Positions 42,585 to 52,324 of a stretch of 54,540 nt of DNA are shown here, piece after piece. The stretch covers positions 1 through 54,540 of the forward strand of contig JACQDQ010000115.1 in assembly GCA_016201015.1 (NCBI GenBank), written 5' to 3'. Below the pieces are notes generated by a model. It was not told the origin of the DNA. It saw only the letters and a program-made list of their open reading frames with translations, and did not search any database. This DNA comes from Pseudomonadota bacterium (GTDB lineage Bacteria; Pseudomonadota; Alphaproteobacteria; CACIAM-22H2). The position numbers and the translations under genes are program-made. Position 1 is the first letter of the stretch; the number at the start of each line of letters is the position of its first letter.

Positions 42585-43673
42585 TCAGCCCGGCGCGGCA
42601 GCGCGCTGTCCGGGCGCCGCCGCGCGGACGGCGGCGATATCGACGCCGACCGACTTGCCGGCGGCGATGATCTCCGCCCAGCTGCGGCTGTCGATCTCGA
42701 TGCCGACGGCGGACCGGGCGACTCGCGTCTTGCGCTCGGGATCGCCGGCGACCATGACCGCCGTGCCATCGCCGCGCGGGCGCGACGACGTCACCCAGGC
42801 GATGTAGCGCTCGACCTCCTGCGCGAAGCCGGCGCTGTCGCCCAGCGCCGCCGGGTCGATGATCACCGACAGCATGTGGTTGATGATGCCCTTGGGGCGC
42901 CCCGCATGCGGTGCCACCGTGCCGCCGCCGGTCAGCGCGCCGGCGAGCAGATCGCAGGCGACCGACAGCCCGAAGCCCTTGTAGGTGCCGAAGGGCAGAA
43001 GCGCGCCGAACGGCTCGCGCCACATGACGTTGGCATCGGTGGTCGGCCGGCCCTCGGCGTCGATCAGGCAGTCGGGCGGGGCCGGCACACCTTTGTTGGC
43101 GGCGACGCGAGTCTTGCCCATGGCGATGATGCTGGTCGCCATATCGAGCATGATATTCCGCCCGCCGGGGCCGGGCACGCCGATGCACACCGGATTGGTT
43201 CCCAGCCGCGCATCGCGGCCACCATGCGGCGCCACGCGGGCCGGCACGCCGATGACGTTGACGTAGTGCATCGACACCAGACCGGCCCCGATGCAGCGCT
43301 CCGCCCAGGCGCCGATGCGGCCGAGATGATGCGCATTGCGCAGCGCGACGAGCGCCATGCCGAGTTTCTGCGCCTTGGCGATGCCGATCGCCATCGCCTC
43401 GGCGCCGATCACCTGGCCATAACCAAACTTGCCGTCGATCACCGCGATGGCACCGCGGTCGGAAATGACCTCGGCATGCTGATTAACTTTGAGCTGGCCC
43501 GCCTTCATGTTGGCGATATAGGACGGCAGCATGCCGACGCCATGCGAATCGTGACCCTGCAGATTCGCCTCGACCAAGTTCTCCGCCACGGCGGCGGACT
43601 CGGCCGCCGACGATCCGCCGGCGGCGCACACCGCCCGCACGAACGCTCGTAACTCCTCTGCCGCAAATAGCAT
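42585..43673 (-). CDS. Ldh_2-family (malate/L-lactate/ureidoglycolate-type) dehydrogenase
   Basis: Track ORF trimmed to Met150 (MLFAAEELRAFV). Motifs GHDSHGV, LGTNP, LDMATS, FGTYKGFGL. Confidence 0.87.
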   Translation of the reverse strand: MLFAAEELRAFVRAVCAAGGSSAAESAAVAENLVEANLQGHDSHGVGMLPSYIANMKAGQLKVNQHAEVISDRGAIAVIDGKFGYGQVIGAEAMAIGIAKAQKLGMALVALRNAHHLGRIGAWAERCIGAGLVSMHYVNVIGVPARVAPHGGRDARLGTNPVCIGVPGPGGRNIMLDMATSIIAMGKTRVAANKGVPAPPDCLIDAEGRPTTDANVMWREPFGALLPFGTYKGFGLSVACDLLAGALTGGGTVAPHAGRPKGIINHMLSVIIDPAALGDSAGFAQEVERYIAWVTSSRPRGDGTAVMVAGDPERKTRVARSAVGIEIDSRSWAEIIAAGKSVGVDIAAVRAAAPGQRAAAPG

Positions 43674-43690
43674 CAACGCGTTCCTTTCGT

Positions 43691-44584
43691 TCAGCCGCCC
43701 GGGATCGTTCCTGGCGGCAAGGTCGTGACATGGGCGGCGATGCCGCCGGCCGTGGTCGTCCACACCATGTCGCCGGCATTGTGGCACACATGGCGCAGCG
43801 CCCGGCGCAGATGGCGCAGCCGGTAGGGCTGGCCGACGAGATAGGCGTGCAGCGCGACACCCATCACCAGCGGCTGGCCGCGGCATTGGACGCGCATCTC
43901 GTCGAAATTGTCGACGATCATGTCGGCGAAAGCATCGGCATCGAGCTTGCGCGCGACGATCATCGGAATGTCGTTGATCTCCTGCGGATAGGGCACGCCG
44001 AGGATGCGGCCGTGACGCGTGCGAAACCAGATCGGCTGATCGTCCTGGCACCAGTCGAGCAGATAGGTATAGCCGGCCTCTTGCAATAGATCGGGCGTGA
44101 TTTGGCTCTCGGAAATCCACGGGCCGAGCCAGCCGGCCGGACGCTTCCCCTCGTGCCGGGCGATGACCTCCGTCGCCTCGCGGATGAGCGCCGCTTCGGC
44201 CGCCGCGTCGAGCGTGCCTTGTCGCTCGGCGTTGGTCCGGCCGTGGCCGACGATCTCGTCGCCGCGCCCGCGGAACGCGACGATCACCTCGGGTGCGTGG
44301 TCGTACATGACGCTGTTGACCAGCACCGAGCAGGGCAGCTTGAGCTCGTCGAACAGCTCGGCCATGCGCCAGACGCCGACGCGATTGCCGTAGTCACGCC
44401 AGGAAAAGTTGAGCACGTCGGGTGGCGGTCCGCCCGGCGCCAGCTCGGCGCCGAGACCTTCGCCGAAGGCGAAATGCTCGAGATTGAGGGCGACATAGAA
44501 GGCGAGCCGCCGCCGCTCCGGCCAGTGATAATCCGGCCGGCGGACGATCGCCGAGTAGCCGTAGCGTCCGTGATCGCGCAGCAT
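43691..44584 (-). CDS. Polysaccharide-deacetylase-fold protein (PuuE allantoinase-like family)
   Basis: Track ORF trimmed to Met159 (MLRDHGRYGYSAIVRRPDYHWPERRRLAFYVALNLEHF). NodB-like fold pattern (VGHGRTN, LDWCQDDQP). 297 aa. Confidence 0.78.
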   Translation of the reverse strand: MLRDHGRYGYSAIVRRPDYHWPERRRLAFYVALNLEHFAFGEGLGAELAPGGPPPDVLNFSWRDYGNRVGVWRMAELFDELKLPCSVLVNSVMYDHAPEVIVAFRGRGDEIVGHGRTNAERQGTLDAAAEAALIREATEVIARHEGKRPAGWLGPWISESQITPDLLQEAGYTYLLDWCQDDQPIWFRTRHGRILGVPYPQEINDIPMIVARKLDADAFADMIVDNFDEMRVQCRGQPLVMGVALHAYLVGQPYRLRHLRRALRHVCHNAGDMVWTTTAGGIAAHVTTLPPGTIPGG

Positions 44585-44594
44585 CGCTCGCTCC

Positions 44595-46184
44595 CTAGAA
44601 TCCCGCCACCACGCCATCGGCGCGCGGATCGGCGGCGCCCTCGATGACGCCGCCGGGATGGCGCACCAGCGCGCCGGCATGCCCCACCAGATCGGAAAAC
44701 TCCGGCAGCATCTCGACATCGTGCCCGGCCTGGCGCAGTCGTTCGATGAGCTCGGCAGCGAAGCGGCGCTCGAGCTTGAGCGTCGTGCTCTCCGCGCCCC
44801 AGGTGCGGCCGAGCAGCCAGCGCGGCGCGGTGACCGCCGCCTGCAGGCCCTGGCCGAACATGGCGTAGCGCGTGAAAAGCGCCGCCTGGGTCTGCGGCTG
44901 GCCCTCGCCGCCCATCGTGCCGTAGGCCATGACCCGGCCATCGGCGAGATGGGCGAGCGCCGGGTTAAGCGTGTGGAACGGCTTGCGACCCGGCGCCAGC
45001 GCATTGGGGGATTTGGCATCGAGAGCGAAGCTGGCGCCGCGGTTCTGCCACAAGACACCGCTGTCGCCGAGCACGACGCCGGAGCCGAACTCCCAATATA
45101 CGCTCTGGATATAGCTCACGGCCCGCCCGGCGCCGTCGATGACGGCGAACCAGATGGTGCCGCCCTGCGGCGACGGCACCGGCCAGGGCAGCGCCCGCGC
45201 CGGATCGATCGCCCGCGCGCGCTCGGCGAGCGCCGCTTCGGTCAGGAAGCTGGCCGGATCGACCGTCATCGTCGCCGGGTCGGCGACATGGCGGTTGCGC
45301 GCGAGGAAGGCCTGCTTGGTCGCCTCGACCAGACGATGCACATAGTCGAAATTTTCCGCCGCCGCGCAGCCAAGCCGATCGAAGATGCCGAGAATCATCA
45401 GCGAGGCCATACCTTGCGTCGGCGGCGGCAGATTGAACGTGGTGCCGGCACGCAGCTTCACCTGTAGCGGCGCGACGATCGCCGCGCGATGGTCTGCAAG
45501 ATCCTCGCGGCGCAGCGGCGTGCCCAGCCGCTCGAGTTCCGCCGCCATCGCCGCAGCAATTTCGCCGCGATAGAAGTCGTCGAGGCCTGCCTTCGCCAAA
45601 CGGACCAGCGTCGCGGCAAGCGCAGCGTTGCGCCGGATCGCGCCGCGCAATGGTGGCTTGTCAGCGTCGAGCATCGCCGCCGCGAAGCCGGGCACGTCCT
45701 TGAGCTGGCCGAGATGCGTCGTCGTGTAGGCCACCTGGCTGCCGGTGGTCGGCACGCCGTCGCGCGCGTAGCCGATCGCATCTTGCAGCAGCCGCGCGAG
45801 CGGCAACCGCCCGCCCCATCGCGCGCTGATCTCGAGCGCCGCCTGCCAGCCGGAGATGGCGCCGGCCACCGTGTTCGCGGCCAGCGGCCCGCGCTGCGGG
45901 ATCGCGTTGACGCCGTGGGCACGGTAGAAGCCGAGATCGGCGAGCCCGGCGGCGCGGCCGCACGCGTCGATGCCGACTGGCGGCCGGCCCGGCTCGTCGA
46001 TCAGCCAGAATCCGTCGCCGCCGATGGCGTTCATATGCGGATAGGCGACGGCGATCGTCGCCGCCGCGGCGACCGCCGCCTCGATTGCTGTGCCGCCCTC
46101 GCGCAGCACGGCAAGCCCCGACTGCGCCGCCTGATGATTGGGCGCGGTCACCATGCCGCGCGTCGCCAGCAAGGCATTCAGCAT
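44595..46184 (-). CDS. Gamma-glutamyltransferase-fold Ntn hydrolase without a signal peptide (oxamate-amidohydrolase-like candidate)
   Basis: 529 aa. MLNALLATRGMVTAPNHQAAQSGLAVLREGGTAIEAAVA (GGT N-terminus, no leader). Autoprocessing/nucleophile Thr in PQGGT-IWFAV. Also TLNPAL and GGEGQPQ. Confidence 0.88.
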   Translation of the reverse strand: MLNALLATRGMVTAPNHQAAQSGLAVLREGGTAIEAAVAAAATIAVAYPHMNAIGGDGFWLIDEPGRPPVGIDACGRAAGLADLGFYRAHGVNAIPQRGPLAANTVAGAISGWQAALEISARWGGRLPLARLLQDAIGYARDGVPTTGSQVAYTTTHLGQLKDVPGFAAAMLDADKPPLRGAIRRNAALAATLVRLAKAGLDDFYRGEIAAAMAAELERLGTPLRREDLADHRAAIVAPLQVKLRAGTTFNLPPPTQGMASLMILGIFDRLGCAAAENFDYVHRLVEATKQAFLARNRHVADPATMTVDPASFLTEAALAERARAIDPARALPWPVPSPQGGTIWFAVIDGAGRAVSYIQSVYWEFGSGVVLGDSGVLWQNRGASFALDAKSPNALAPGRKPFHTLNPALAHLADGRVMAYGTMGGEGQPQTQAALFTRYAMFGQGLQAAVTAPRWLLGRTWGAESTTLKLERRFAAELIERLRQAGHDVEMLPEFSDLVGHAGALVRHPGGVIEGAADPRADGVVAGF

Positions 46185-46190
46185 CGCGGG

Positions 46191-47630
46191 TCAGCCCACA
46201 CCCAGCGATTCCGCCAGCGCGACGAGCGCCTGGCTGAAGCAGACCATCGGCGCGCGCACGATGCCGGCGCCGACCTGGCCGATGCCCGCCACCTTGTGCG
46301 CCATGCCGGTTGTGAACACCGGGCGAATGCCGCTGTCGACCACTTTGCGCACGTCGACGCCGGTGGGGGCGCCGGCGAAGTCGAGCCGCGGCAGTGCGAG
46401 CGCCGGATTGCGCGCGATCGTGATGTCGTACATCTCCTGCGAATAGGCGACCGCCGCGTCGGCCGAACCGCCGACGAGCTGCACCAGCGCCGGCGAGGCG
46501 GCCAGCGAGAAGCCGCCGAAGCCGGCGGTCTCGGTGATCGCGCTGTCGCCGAGATCGGCGTTGGCGTCACCGGCCTTGAAGCCGGGGAAAAATAGCCCGA
46601 CCGGCGTATCCGCCGCGGCCTCGAACCAGCGCCCGCCGAGCCCGCTGACGCGGATGCCGACGGTGACGCCGTTGCGCGCCATCGCCGTCACCATGCTGCT
46701 CGCCGCGACGCCGTGCGCCGCGTCCATCGTCGCCTTGGCCGAGACCATCGACAGATTGAGGAAGAATTGCGAATTGCCATCGATGCTGCGCAGCACCTCG
46801 CGCAGCATTGCGTCGTCGAGATCGCTTTGGATGAGCGGTATCGTGATTGCCTCGAGGAACAACGAGGTCGAGGCGGCATTGCGGCTATGCACCTCGTCGC
46901 CCATCGCCAGCGCGCGGGATTGGATCGCCTTGAGGTTGATGCCGCCGTCGATCGCCGTCACCGCGCGCTTGAGCGCCGGCGCCAGCGCGGTTTCGATCCA
47001 GCGCAGCCGCTCGATCACCTCCGGGCCGTTGGCGCCGAAGCGCAGCACCTTGCCAATGCCTTCGTTGATGTTGGTAAAAGCGACGTTGCCGGCATCATCA
47101 TTGCGCACCTTGAACAAAGGCATCGATGGCGAAATGATGCCGCTCATCGGCCCGACCGCGCCGTGATCGTGGCACGGGTTGAAGGCGATCTCGCCTCGTG
47201 CCAGCAGCGCGCGCGCCGCGTCCGCATCGGCGGCCCAGCCCTCGTAGAGCAGCGCACCGATCGCGGCGCCCTGCATCGGCCCGCACATGCGCTCCCAGGC
47301 GATCGGCGGGCCGGCGTGGAGCAACGTGCGCCCCATATCGGGAAACGCCTCGCGCGCATGCGCCACGACGTCGACCAGCATCGGCTGCGCGGCGAGCACG
47401 CGGGCGACCGCCTGCTGATTGGCGCGATCGATGCGCGCACCGGGAGACTCGGGGTCGGCCGGGTCGCCGGCGAGCTGCGCCAACAACCATGCGAGGCGCG
47501 GATCGCCATCGCCGATCGGCCGCCAGGCGATGTCGAGCGCCGCCGCGCCAACCTCGCGGGCGGTCGCGGCGAAGTCGCCGAGGCCGAGATTGACGATCGT
47601 CGGCGCGCGGGCGATGAGCTGCTTCGTCAT
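46191..47630 (-). CDS. DUF1116 protein (YlbE/AllG-like), paralogue 1
   Basis: 479 aa. Motifs LHAGPPIAWERMCGPMQGA, GAVGPMSGIISPSMPLF, FFLNLSM, GDSAITETAGFGG. ATGA overlap with the DUF2877 gene. Confidence 0.85.
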   Translation of the reverse strand: MTKQLIARAPTIVNLGLGDFAATAREVGAAALDIAWRPIGDGDPRLAWLLAQLAGDPADPESPGARIDRANQQAVARVLAAQPMLVDVVAHAREAFPDMGRTLLHAGPPIAWERMCGPMQGAAIGALLYEGWAADADAARALLARGEIAFNPCHDHGAVGPMSGIISPSMPLFKVRNDDAGNVAFTNINEGIGKVLRFGANGPEVIERLRWIETALAPALKRAVTAIDGGINLKAIQSRALAMGDEVHSRNAASTSLFLEAITIPLIQSDLDDAMLREVLRSIDGNSQFFLNLSMVSAKATMDAAHGVAASSMVTAMARNGVTVGIRVSGLGGRWFEAAADTPVGLFFPGFKAGDANADLGDSAITETAGFGGFSLAASPALVQLVGGSADAAVAYSQEMYDITIARNPALALPRLDFAGAPTGVDVRKVVDSGIRPVFTTGMAHKVAGIGQVGAGIVRAPMVCFSQALVALAESLGVG

Positions 47631-48523
47631 ATCGCCGTCTCGTGAACCTGGCGCAACGCGCCGGTGAGGCCGGCGATGAGTCCGGCCAACATGTCCCAGC
47701 CTGAGGAATGACCGATGGCGACAAAGCGGCGTGCCGCGGCGAACGCGGCATCCCCATCATTGCCATGCATGGCCTCCACGAGCGTGTGGAGTAACGCGAA
47801 GCTCTGCCCGTCGGCAAGGTCGGCGAAGAGGGCGGCGCTGATCCGATTCGTCCGCCGTACCGCCTCGGCCTTGAGGGACTCGGCGATGTCGTCCCAATGC
47901 CGCGCATTGGTTGCGGGTATATGGCGTCGTGCGAAAATTAGGCCGCCGACGAAGTCGTCGCCCGACGGCGTGAGGCCCGGGCCGAGGCCGATGAGCGGCA
48001 ATGCCGCCGCGACGACCGCCGCGTCATCGCCCGCTGCCGACGCGCGGACGAATGCCGCGGCCAGATGGACCGCCCGATCCAGCGGAAACGTCGGCGTCTG
48101 GCCGAACAGGCAGGCGCCAAGGCCGCCGGCCGGCGCCAGTCCCACGAGCCGCTCGCAGAGCGCCGGTCCGGCCGCACGACGCCGATCGATATCCCACGCG
48201 GCGAGCTCGCGCCGCGCCGGCCGCCACGGCTCAACGCCGGCGAATTCGATGTGCAGCAGATCTTGGCCCACTGGCAGCGACTCTGCGAGCAGCACCAGGC
48301 GCGGATGCGGCGTGCGGTCGCTCAGCCCCAGCCAGATCACCTCGCCGGCGGCCGTGGCGTAGATCGACTCCGACAGTGTGGACAACAGCCGCGCGCGACC
48401 GAAGCTGCGCGCGAGCGCCGCGTGCGCCTTGGCACCGATCGCCGCAACGCGCAAACCGCGATCGAGGATTGCATCAGGCGACAAGGCGAGTCCCCGCGGT
48501 ACCGCGCAACGCATCGAGGCCAC
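47627..48523 (-). CDS. DUF2877 protein (YlbF/AllH-like)
   Basis: GLGPGLTPSGDDFVGGLIFA motif. GTG start at 48523 overlaps the carbamate-kinase 3' end by ~50 nt, so the true start may be a little downstream. Confidence 0.7.
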   Translation of the reverse strand: MASMRCAVPRGLALSPDAILDRGLRVAAIGAKAHAALARSFGRARLLSTLSESIYATAAGEVIWLGLSDRTPHPRLVLLAESLPVGQDLLHIEFAGVEPWRPARRELAAWDIDRRRAAGPALCERLVGLAPAGGLGACLFGQTPTFPLDRAVHLAAAFVRASAAGDDAAVVAAALPLIGLGPGLTPSGDDFVGGLIFARRHIPATNARHWDDIAESLKAEAVRRTNRISAALFADLADGQSFALLHTLVEAMHGNDGDAAFAAARRFVAIGHSSGWDMLAGLIAGLTGALRQVHETAI

Positions 48524-49323
48524 GCTCGAGCGAGGTGATGACGGCCGTCCGACCGCTCTGCGCCACGAAGCGGATCGCCGCGCGAATCTTCGGCCCCATG
48601 CTGCCTTCGGGGAACTGGCCGCCGGCCAGATGGCGCTCGGCTTCGCGCACGGACAAGCGGTCGACCGCGCGCTGCGTCGGCTTGCCGAAATCGAGCGCCA
48701 CGCGATCGACGCCGGTAAGGATGATCAGCGCATCGGCGCCGAGGTCGGCGGCGAGCACGGCGCTCGTCAAGTCCTTGTCGACCACCGCGGCTACGCCCTC
48801 GTACATCCCGTCGGATCGCGGCACCACCGGTATGCCGCCGCCGCCAGCCACGATCGGTATCGCCCCGGCGTTCAGCAGAAGCCGCACGACGTCGATCTCA
48901 AGGATGGCGCGCGGCTCCGGCGAAGGAACGACGCGCCGGTAGCCGCGGCCGGAATCCTCGGCCATGGCCCAGCCCGTTTCGCGCGCCACGCGCTCTGCCT
49001 GTTCGGCGGCATAGAACGGCCCAACCGGCTTGGTCGGATGCCGGAAGGCTGGATCGTCGACATCGACGACGACGCGCGTCACGACCGACGCGACCTGAAC
49101 CGCATGGCCGTGCGCATGCAGTAAGTTGGCCAGGCTCTGCTGCAGGATATAGCCGATGCCGCCCTGCGAATGGGCGACGCATATGTCCATCGGCATCGGC
49201 GTCAGCTGCGTCGCCGATATCGCCAGCGATGGCGAACTGCTCCTCGGCGGTACCGCGGATATCCGGCGGGTAGGTTGCGTTGCCGCCGAGCGCAACGACG
49301 ACGATCGGGCCGGCCGCGGTCAT
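48474..49323 (-). pseudogene. arcC: Carbamate kinase gene with an internal deletion and frameshift
   Basis: The N-terminus MTAAGPIVVVALGGNA... is in one frame (ORF 48898..49323). The rest (MPMDICVAHSQGGIGY...GGGGIPVV...DKDL...FPEGSMGPKI...ITSLE) is in another frame (ORF 48474..49295). The frames switch near 49205-49225. The HGNGPQVG segment normally found between these parts is absent in all frames. Confidence 0.75.
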
Positions 49324-50756
49324 GACGCGGCGCCGAGGGCCCGGGCGAGCGCGGCGACGGCGCCGACGAAGCAGGCCATCGGCGCGCGGGCGAGGCCCAT
49401 GCCGATCTGTCCGAGTCCCGCTTGTCGATGCGCGATCGCGGTCACGATCGCCGGCCGCACGCCGTTGTCGACGACCTTGCGCACGTCGATGCCGGTGGGC
49501 GCGCCGACGAAATCGAGCGCCGGCAGGGTGAACGCCGGGTTGCGCGCGAGCGTGACCGAGTCCAAGTCGCGCGTGAGGTCGAGCGCGGCCTCGGCGGTCC
49601 CGCCCACCGCCGTGACCAAACCGAGCCCGGCGCCGAGCGCGAACGCGCCGAGGCCGGCCGCTTCGACGATCGCGCTGTCGCCGAGATCGGGGTTGGCGTC
49701 GACCGCCGTGTAAGGCGGCACGATCACACCCGACGGCATTTCGGCCGGCGCGGTGAACCAGCGCTCGCCGAGGCCGCTCACGCGGATGCCGGTTTCCACG
49801 CCGTTGCGGGCAATTGCCGTGACCAGGCTGCTGTCGGCGACGCCATGTGCCGCGTCGAGCGCGGCCTTGGCCGCCGCCATCGCCAGATTGAGAAAGAAAC
49901 CGGGGGTCGACTGGATATGACGCAGGATGGCGACGACGGTGCGGCGATCGAGTCCGGCATCGAGCAGTGGCCGCGTAAATGCGCGGAAGACGAGCGACGT
50001 CGCCGCCGTCGTACGGCCATGCAGCTCGTCGCCCATATGCAGCGCCTGGGCGATGATCGGCTTGAGCGGCAGGCCACCCTCGAGCGTGCTGAGGGCGCGC
50101 TTGAGTCCCGGGCCGATGAAGCGCTGGATCAGCTTGAGGCGATCTCCGACCTCCGTCTCGTAGACGCCGAACTGCAGCGACCGGCCGCCGCCGTCGGCGA
50201 TCGGCGCGTAGGCGATATTGCCGCGCGCGGCGTTGCGCACGACGAAGAGCGGCATCGACGGCGAGACTACGCCGGCCATCGCCCCGACGGCGCCGCGATG
50301 ATGCCCGGGCGCGAAGGCGATCTCGCCGCTAGTCGCGAGCTTCCCCGCCGCCTTGGGCGTGCCCGCCCAGCCTTCGTAGAGGATCGCGCCGATGATCGCG
50401 CCGCGCATTGGCCGGCACATGCGGCCCCATTCGATCGGCGGCCCGGCATGCAGGATCGTCCGCCCCAGATCCGGCCACACCTCGCTCGCGCGCCGCGCCA
50501 CGTCGACCAGCACCGGCTGCGCATCGAGCAGGCGGGACATGGCCTCGCGGTTCGCCCGATCGATGCGCGAGCCAACCGCATCCTTGTCGCTGTCGTCGCC
50601 GAAGAGGCGCGCCAACGCCCATGCGGATTCGCCATCGGCCGCCGGCGGACGCCAGTCGAGATGAATGGCGCGCGCACCGCCGGCCCGTGCCGTCGCGGCG
50701 AAATCGCCAATGCCGAGATTGAGCACCGACACGCTGGGCGCGACGAGCGGCCTCAT
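49320..50756 (-). CDS. DUF1116 protein (YlbE/AllG-like), paralogue 2
   Basis: Track ORF 49320..51806 trimmed to Met351 (MRPLVAPSVSVLNLG), whose ATG overlaps the fdrA stop (ATGA). 478 aa, collinear with paralogue 1. Confidence 0.85.
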   Translation of the reverse strand: MRPLVAPSVSVLNLGIGDFAATARAGGARAIHLDWRPPAADGESAWALARLFGDDSDKDAVGSRIDRANREAMSRLLDAQPVLVDVARRASEVWPDLGRTILHAGPPIEWGRMCRPMRGAIIGAILYEGWAGTPKAAGKLATSGEIAFAPGHHRGAVGAMAGVVSPSMPLFVVRNAARGNIAYAPIADGGGRSLQFGVYETEVGDRLKLIQRFIGPGLKRALSTLEGGLPLKPIIAQALHMGDELHGRTTAATSLVFRAFTRPLLDAGLDRRTVVAILRHIQSTPGFFLNLAMAAAKAALDAAHGVADSSLVTAIARNGVETGIRVSGLGERWFTAPAEMPSGVIVPPYTAVDANPDLGDSAIVEAAGLGAFALGAGLGLVTAVGGTAEAALDLTRDLDSVTLARNPAFTLPALDFVGAPTGIDVRKVVDNGVRPAIVTAIAHRQAGLGQIGMGLARAPMACFVGAVAALARALGAAS

Positions 50757-52324
50757 CGCTTGGCCATGTTCTTTCCGAAGCCGGCGATTTCGGCCGCGGC
50801 CCAGGCCGCCGCCGCGCTGCTCGACGCGAGCAGGGCACCGGCCTTGCGCAGCTTGTTTTCCTGATCCGACCGGCGCTGCGGATCCTGCTCGGTGCCGCAG
50901 ACGAATGCCACGACGCTCAGATACCGGCGCTTCGCGCGCGCCTCGGCCTTGGCCTTTTGGATCGCCGGCGCCAGCACGCCGGCCGGATCGGCATGCGCGC
51001 CGTGGCCGAGCACGACATCCAGCACCACGACACCGACGGCCGGATCGCGCGCCTCTTTCAGCAGCCGTTCGACCCGCATTGTCATGTCGATCATCGGATG
51101 CGGCCGGCCAATCGTGAATTCGTCGCTGCCGAAATCGACCACCGCGTGTTCGATGCCCTTCTGCCCCTCGACAAGCAGCAGGTCCTTGTCGAACGGCACG
51201 TTGGAGCGGGTCTTGAGACCGAGATCGCGCCAGATGAGCTGCGCCTCGCTGCAGAACGTGCCACCGGAATAGAGGCCGCGGAGACCGCGCTGATCCGCGC
51301 GGAGCCGCGCCTGCTCGCGCTTCACCCCCGCTAGGCTCGGCGCGCGCGTCATGCGCGACGGCGTGGCGCGGCGCCGCAGGGTCGCCACCGCGCGCTCGGC
51401 CGCCTCCTCGAGCGTGCGTACGGCGAGGATGTTCTTGCGGCCGGCAACCATGGCCGAATCGCCGCCGAGAAACAGCGCCACCACCGGCTTGCCCGCGGCG
51501 GCGGCGCGATCGAGAAGCGCCGCGGCAACCGCCGGCGCCGGCGGCTTCGACAACAGCACGATCACCCGCGTCTCGGCATCGGCCGCGAGCAGGTCGAGAC
51601 CCTGCATCAGCGTGATGCCGCCGATCGCTTCCGAGGCGTCGCGGCCGCCGGCGCCGATCGCATGCGACACGCCCTCGCCCCGCCGATCGATCTGGCACAT
51701 CACCTCCTGCAGCCCGGTGCCGGAGGCGGCGATGAGCCCGATCGCGCCGCGGCGCACCACGTTGGCGAAGCCGAGCGGCACGCCATGCAGAATGGCCGTG
51801 CCGCAATCCGGCCCCATGACGATGAGGCCCTTGCGCTGCGCCAGCTCCTTGATCGCCTTCTCCTGCTCGACCGGCACGTTGTCGCTGAACAGAAAGACGT
51901 TGAGGCCGAGGCGCAGCGCCTTGAGCGCCTCGGCGCCGGCATAGGCGCCGGGCACCGAGATCATCGCCAGGTTGGCATCCTTCATGCGCGCGACGCCCAG
52001 CGCCAAGCTGCGCGGCGCGCGCTCGGCCGCGGCGCCGCGTTCCGCCGCGAGGTTGCCGGACAACAGCTCGTTCATGCGCGCGACGGCGGCGTCCACCGCC
52101 GCGTCATTGGCGCCGTCGATCACCGCCATGATGTCATCGGGGCGCGCGGCGATCGCCTCCGGAGTCAGCATCGCGGCCTCGGCGAGGATCGCCTTGTTGG
52201 CCTGCGTGCCCATGAGCAGCGTCGCGCGCCGCACGCCGCTCAAGGCGGTGAGGGCCTCGGCCACGCGCATCAACGCCACCGAGTCCTTGTAGAGATCCGC
52301 CTTGACCAGCGAACGAATCGGCAT
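50753..52324 (-). CDS. fdrA: FdrA-family protein (succinyl-CoA-synthetase-alpha-like, AllF-like)
   Basis: Track ORF trimmed to Met162 (MPIRSLVKADLYKDSVALMRV). CoA-ligase-type motifs GPDCGTA, ASGTGLQE, SHAIGAGGRD (phosphohistidine loop). Confidence 0.87.
   Translation of the reverse strand: MPIRSLVKADLYKDSVALMRVAEALTALSGVRRATLLMGTQANKAILAEAAMLTPEAIAARPDDIMAVIDGANDAAVDAAVARMNELLSGNLAAERGAAAERAPRSLALGVARMKDANLAMISVPGAYAGAEALKALRLGLNVFLFSDNVPVEQEKAIKELAQRKGLIVMGPDCGTAILHGVPLGFANVVRRGAIGLIAASGTGLQEVMCQIDRRGEGVSHAIGAGGRDASEAIGGITLMQGLDLLAADAETRVIVLLSKPPAPAVAAALLDRAAAAGKPVVALFLGGDSAMVAGRKNILAVRTLEEAAERAVATLRRRATPSRMTRAPSLAGVKREQARLRADQRGLRGLYSGGTFCSEAQLIWRDLGLKTRSNVPFDKDLLLVEGQKGIEHAVVDFGSDEFTIGRPHPMIDMTMRVERLLKEARDPAVGVVVLDVVLGHGAHADPAGVLAPAIQKAKAEARAKRRYLSVVAFVCGTEQDPQRRSDQENKLRKAGALLASSSAAAAWAAAEIAGFGKNMAKR

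Follow-up and report, generated by a model that had tools for sequence, protein, structure and literature searches.

In Escherichia coli, the AllF, AllG and AllH proteins together make up the oxamic transcarbamylase, which converts oxalurate to oxamate and carbamoyl phosphate, and AllK then uses the carbamoyl phosphate and ADP to form ATP (PMC11326118, PMC9843812). When allK is absent, allantoin degradation in E. coli changes only slightly, and the authors explained this mild effect by the passage of carbamoyl phosphate into pyrimidine and arginine synthesis (PMC9843812). Solved carbamate kinases build the oxyanion hole of their carbamoyl-phosphate site from the backbone amides of a conserved loop. 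In the Giardia enzyme the ligand in this site is bound by the amides of Asn55 and Gly56, which belong to the loop, and the hole is conserved in the Enterococcus enzyme (PMC3659122).

The DNA analysed here is a stretch of 54,540 nucleotides from an alphaproteobacterial genome assembly, hereafter the window, which carries a carbamate kinase gene of the allK/arcC type on its minus strand (48474..49323). It is part of a compact, co-directional purine-breakdown (oxalurate/oxamate) module, in which genes for FdrA/AllF, DUF1116/AllG and DUF2877/AllH stand beside the kinase gene, the arrangement that defines an allFGHK-type module. On the minus strand the module begins with an intact allF/fdrA-type gene (50753..52324; NF004760 FdrA, 494.6 bits against a cut-off of 433), followed by the upstream neighbour of the kinase, an intact allG-type gene (DUF1116/AllG, 49320..50756, 478 aa; PF06545, 3e-77). 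The kinase gene is followed by an allH-type gene (DUF2877/AllH, 47627..48484, 285 aa from TTG 48484; PF11392, 2.5e-22) and by a second, intact allG paralogue (46191..47630, 479 aa; PF06545, 1.2e-85). Genes for a GGT-fold protein (44595..46184; PF01019, with TIGR00066 below its cut-off), a PuuE-like deacetylase (43691..44620; TIGR03212, 128 bits, well below cut-off) and an Ldh_2 dehydrogenase (42585..43700; PF02615, with NF007504 above its cut-off) continue in the same direction. ATGA overlaps were found at the allF/allG, allG/kinase and allH/allG2 junctions, and the TTG start of allH overlaps the kinase stop by 11 nt. These family matches and overlapping junctions are in line with the original prediction, made from the letters of the window, of an otherwise intact, translationally coupled operon. 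Judging from their families, the AllF, AllG and AllH proteins would convert oxalurate to oxamate and carbamoyl phosphate.

Like E. coli AllK (YbcF), which serves as the catabolic carbamate kinase in the allFGHK operon of that species, the window kinase is an amino-acid-kinase-fold carbamate kinase by family and sits within an fdrA/allF, DUF1116/allG and DUF2877/allH module. It differs in that the order here is allF-allG-allK-allH-allG2, with an extra allG paralogue and the GGT-fold, PuuE-like and Ldh_2 genes thereafter, in that the gene is broken, and in that it lies nearer to the TIGR00746/PRK12352 models than to the YbcF model NF006926. Two more distant operons (L036 and L037), whose intact kinases (P0005 and P0011) are 65-66% identical to the window copy over its retained 240 aa, have the order allF-CK-allH-allG, which makes the kinase a conserved core member of the module. 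The two AllG (DUF1116) paralogues of the window, which flank the kinase and allH, are about 56% identical to each other, while L036 and L037 carry a single allG. The PuuE-like protein scores only 128 bits with the model of the allantoinase PuuE, for which the cut-off is 424.6, and gave no Pfam match at E<=1e-3; its substrate may be other than allantoin. Outside the sister strain described below, the nearest kinases come from Burkholderiales/Casimicrobiaceae-type genomes (62-65% identity), whereas those of genomes from the same family as the window are only 46-54% identical, a distribution which hints that the module may have been acquired horizontally.

Frame translations showed that the coding sequence of the kinase is split across two frames, as the original prediction had read from the open reading frames. 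Frame A, starting at the ATG at 49323, gives MTAAGPIVVVALGGNATYPPDIRGTAEEQFAIA, which includes the first glycine loop (VVVALGGNA), and then low-complexity junk up to a TGA at 48898-48900; a ribosome starting at this authentic ATG would thus add 108 junk residues to 33 correct ones and stop 414 nt upstream of the allH start (premature stop, 48898..48900, minus strand). Residues 68-316 lie in a different frame, frame B, which reads AISATQLTPMPMDICVAHSQ... up to GTRLVA, contains ...AISATQLTPMPMDICVAHSQGGIGY... and ends ...GTAGTRLVA with its stop at 48474. The third minus-strand frame of the region is riddled with stops. The N-terminal remnant, codons 1-33 with the GGNA loop, occupies 49225..49323 and differs from the sister gene at one amino acid; the C-terminal remnant, codons 68-316 plus the stop, occupies 48474..49223 and retains GGGGIP, DKD and GSMGPK of the C-terminal nucleotide-binding half, all on the minus strand. 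In none of the three frames of 48474..49323 did we find the HGNGP motif. The conserved glycine-rich loop had indeed been reported as missing from every frame, although the spelling then given, HGNGPQVG, is not that of the subfamily, whose members have THGNGPVVG. Against TIGR00746 (arcC, EC 2.7.2.2), for which the equivalog cut-off is 358.25 bits, the frame B piece aligned at profile positions 71-308 with 299.9 bits, and a six-frame search of the whole genome with the same model found the kinase match at positions 66-308 with 302 bits, both below the cut-off. The region is a carbamate kinase family member by descent which, as a gene product, is without the defining features of the family.

What was lost became evident from a sister strain. 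When the C-terminal 240 aa were used as a protein query, a single near-identical match came back, a 316-aa protein (P0001, 97%), with all next matches at 69% or below. P0001 is encoded on two contigs, L028 (a 5588-nt JGI metagenome contig, 3300036760) and L029 (a 2026-nt Logan contig, SRR11714420), which are 95-97% identical to the window at the nucleotide level and both of which carry the kinase gene intact. Examination of the orthologous locus in a sister strain had been suggested with the original prediction, and on both contigs the kinase was found in a single frame. The sister kinase resembles the window copy in sequence over the retained 240 aa and in its neighbours (allG upstream; allH, allG2 and a GGT-type gene downstream), and differs from it in possessing 101 nt, covering residues 34-67, which the window copy lacks. 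BLASTN gave two ungapped blocks against the window, L028 2-1057 (96.7%) and L028 1159-2099 (95.5%), which abut in the window, so that L028 1058-1158, exactly 101 nt, is missing; L029 gave the same result. The junction falls between window bases 49226 and 49225 (49225..49226, minus strand), where, on the minus strand, GCAGTTCGCCATCGC is joined to TGGCGATATCGG (junction GCCATCGC|TGGCGATATC). Read in codons, the deletion starts with base three of codon 33, ends with base one of codon 67 and removes 34 residues of the intact sister protein, H34-M67 (HRSSESLVAMHEAGYRLVLTHGNGPVVGRILMRM), including the THGNGPVVG loop. Since 101 = 33x3+2, the same event also shifts the frame, and two lesions, a deletion and a separate frameshift, were rejected because one 101-nt gap accounts for both. 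Of the lesion proposed originally, an internal deletion of about 95 nt plus a frameshift with the frames switching near 49205-49225, the internal deletion and its region stand, and the size, the separate frameshift and the exact position give way to the single gap defined by L028 and L029. The pseudogene is 850 nt long as against 951 nt in the intact sister, whose product aligns with TIGR00746 at positions 3-308 with 366.3 bits, above the cut-off.

The sister contigs also differ from the window in allH, where 539 nt (L028:2100-2638; L029:1896-2026) replace 41 nt of the window (48244-48284). This segment consists of dispersed REP-like palindromic repeats, with at least 44 matches in the genome to which the window belongs, and lies within the variable AllH linker, where about 180 codons pass without a stop and the frame stays open, so that allH may tolerate it as an in-frame insertion instead of being knocked out. 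In the JGI gene calls, allH is represented only by the 218 aa that follow the repeat-derived segment. In a nearly identical strain (contig L038) allH is uninterrupted, as in the window.

The lost segment is a fixed part of the enzyme. We aligned the 120 best homologues, 118 of which are full-length and 119 of which cover the T-H-G-N-G-P motif, and found the segment to be exactly 34 residues long in every full-length sequence; in the other two the sequence starts with its first aligned residue, and they were probably truncated by the end of a contig. The residues T53, H54, G55, N56, G57 and P58 were invariant in all 119 sequences covering them. A natural short isoform was rejected on these grounds (the segment in 118/118 and an invariant loop), and the same count excludes the possibility, raised at the outset as one that would overturn the prediction, that intact close homologues naturally do without this segment. 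Over its full length P0001 aligned with the carbamate kinase structures of P. furiosus (1E19), Giardia (3KZF) and E. faecalis (1B7B) with E values of 4e-85 to 2e-72, and shares with them the GGNA and xGNGPQVG loops. The deleted residues cover the last part of the first helix, the second beta-strand, and the loop (xGNGPQVG in 1E19 and 3KZF) plus a helix, so that, unlike the three solved enzymes, the window copy is without the second loop and the strand and helix adjoining it.

We considered whether the shortened gene might nevertheless give a working protein, for example a kinase or a structural partner of AllF/G/H, as frames of 240 and 238 aa which contain GGGGIP, DKD and GSMGPK start at in-frame ATG codons (49196 and 49190, respectively). 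But the re-initiation product from ATG 49196 would contain neither of the phosphate-binding glycine loops (GGNA, HGNGP) nor the initial strands of the N-lobe, and such a form occurs in 0 of the 118 full-length homologues, which renders a functional short protein highly improbable. A more substantial concern is that a chimeric or low-coverage path through the metagenome assembly produced the 101-nt gap, or that the assembler chose a minority allele, the organism or most of its cells having the intact 316-aa kinase; the intact allele may also coexist with the deleted one in a mixed population. The assembly is a draft of the metagenome type (5.33 Mb in 551 contigs, N50 12.9 kb, shortest contig 2505 nt, 24 N, 96% complete) and, with 141-mers shared at 14 contig ends, looks like a MEGAHIT metagenome bin. 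The remnant is otherwise flawless, no lesion beyond the 101-nt gap being seen in comparison with the sister, and its divergence is of the kind expected under purifying selection: compared with the sister by the Nei-Gojobori method, the 248 codons of the kinase remnant show 22 synonymous and 8 non-synonymous changes and a dN/dS of 0.126, similar to the intact neighbours allG2 (0.115) and allG (0.20), and an artefact would leave the same picture. Purifying selection over essentially the whole divergence implies that the deletion, if real, is very young. Furthermore, neither protein nor exact searches returned an independent contig carrying the junction; the exact search with the junction and its flank in metagenome and genome contig collections gave no match, but it likewise did not return the known sister contig, so that this negative carries no weight.

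Several observations speak against an artefact. A de Bruijn assembler can produce such a junction only from reads that support it or from a repeat with a length of about k or more. No direct repeat of at least 9 nt was found at the deletion ends, and hence a repeat-mediated deletion or an assembly collapse was rejected, the ends having no repeat able to collapse a de Bruijn path; the only feature there is a 7-nt inverted pair, TCGCCAT/ATGGCGA (L028 1048-1054 and 1158-1164), to which we gave no weight. Compared with three independent contigs the window has no other indels apart from one allH event relative to the sister: over 4.2 kb of L028 only the 101-nt gap and that event were seen, and L038 (Logan SRR12113410, 2084 nt), which corresponds to window 46665-48748 and ends 478 nt short of the junction, is 99.47% identical and gap-free, which argues that the assembly is not indel-prone. 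From this gap-free identity, run SRR12113410 holds essentially the window's own strain. No other part of the assembly contains the missing 101 nt, although contigs below 2.5 kb would have been discarded in any case. The exact proteins of allG, allH, allG2 and GGT from this contig are present in an NCBI-derived collection, and exact look-up of the kinase ORF pieces (273, 240, 238 and 141 aa) in the same collection gave none, a pattern which fits a gene annotated as a pseudogene. Taken together, an artefact or a minority allele appears unlikely, though it is an explanation to be reckoned with, and we put the probability at about 0.75 that a single, evolutionarily very recent deletion of 101 nt has made the carbamate kinase gene of this operon a pseudogene. 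The central reading of the original prediction, a carbamate kinase broken by an internal deletion within an otherwise intact operon, is thereby supported, with the loop lost, the frame shifted and the neighbours intact.

With residues 34-67 and the THGNGPVVG loop removed and the frame shifted, a recent inactivating deletion would mean that the gene yields no active kinase. The coupling of allH translation to that of the kinase would also be lost, because frameshifted ribosomes arriving from allG would terminate 414 nt before allH, and some polarity on the downstream genes is possible. Carbamoyl phosphate from the AllF/G/H-type oxamate carbamoyltransferase would then not be turned to ATP; it would instead be used by ornithine or aspartate transcarbamylases, or decay, and the remaining pathway should still be able to release nitrogen. 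The suggestion that a kinase encoded elsewhere substitutes was not borne out, since a six-frame search of the genome (G000, 96% complete) with the carbamate kinase model found no second carbamate kinase; the other matches were distant members of the amino-acid-kinase fold only, which are probably biosynthetic kinases. The genome has two genes of the OTCase/ATCase family, which could act as consumers of carbamoyl phosphate. As deletion of allK is near-silent in E. coli, we consider it plausible that loss of the kinase is tolerated here too, with nitrogen release continuing and the ATP yield alone being forfeited.

It is doubtful that the loss of allK is a real rewiring, selected or freely tolerated, rather than noise. 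If it were, the operon would need no substrate-level ATP, carbamoyl phosphate would be channelled to arginine and pyrimidine synthesis, and the large repeat-derived insertion in the allH of the sister would independently point, for a second time, to a relaxation of constraint on the module; the setting would be an aerobic-type alphaproteobacterial lineage whose operon kinase, by sequence comparison, appears most similar to kinases of Burkholderiales. The recent inactivation of a gene by deletion within an accessory catabolic operon is nothing out of the ordinary, and it has little weight beyond correct annotation. It does illustrate clearly how a pseudogene of very recent origin can stand within an intact operon, and agrees with the dispensability of allK for allantoin degradation in E. 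coli. For this organism, the genome is to be scored as being without a functional carbamate kinase, and metabolic reconstructions should credit no ATP gain from the oxamate branch of purine/allantoin breakdown.
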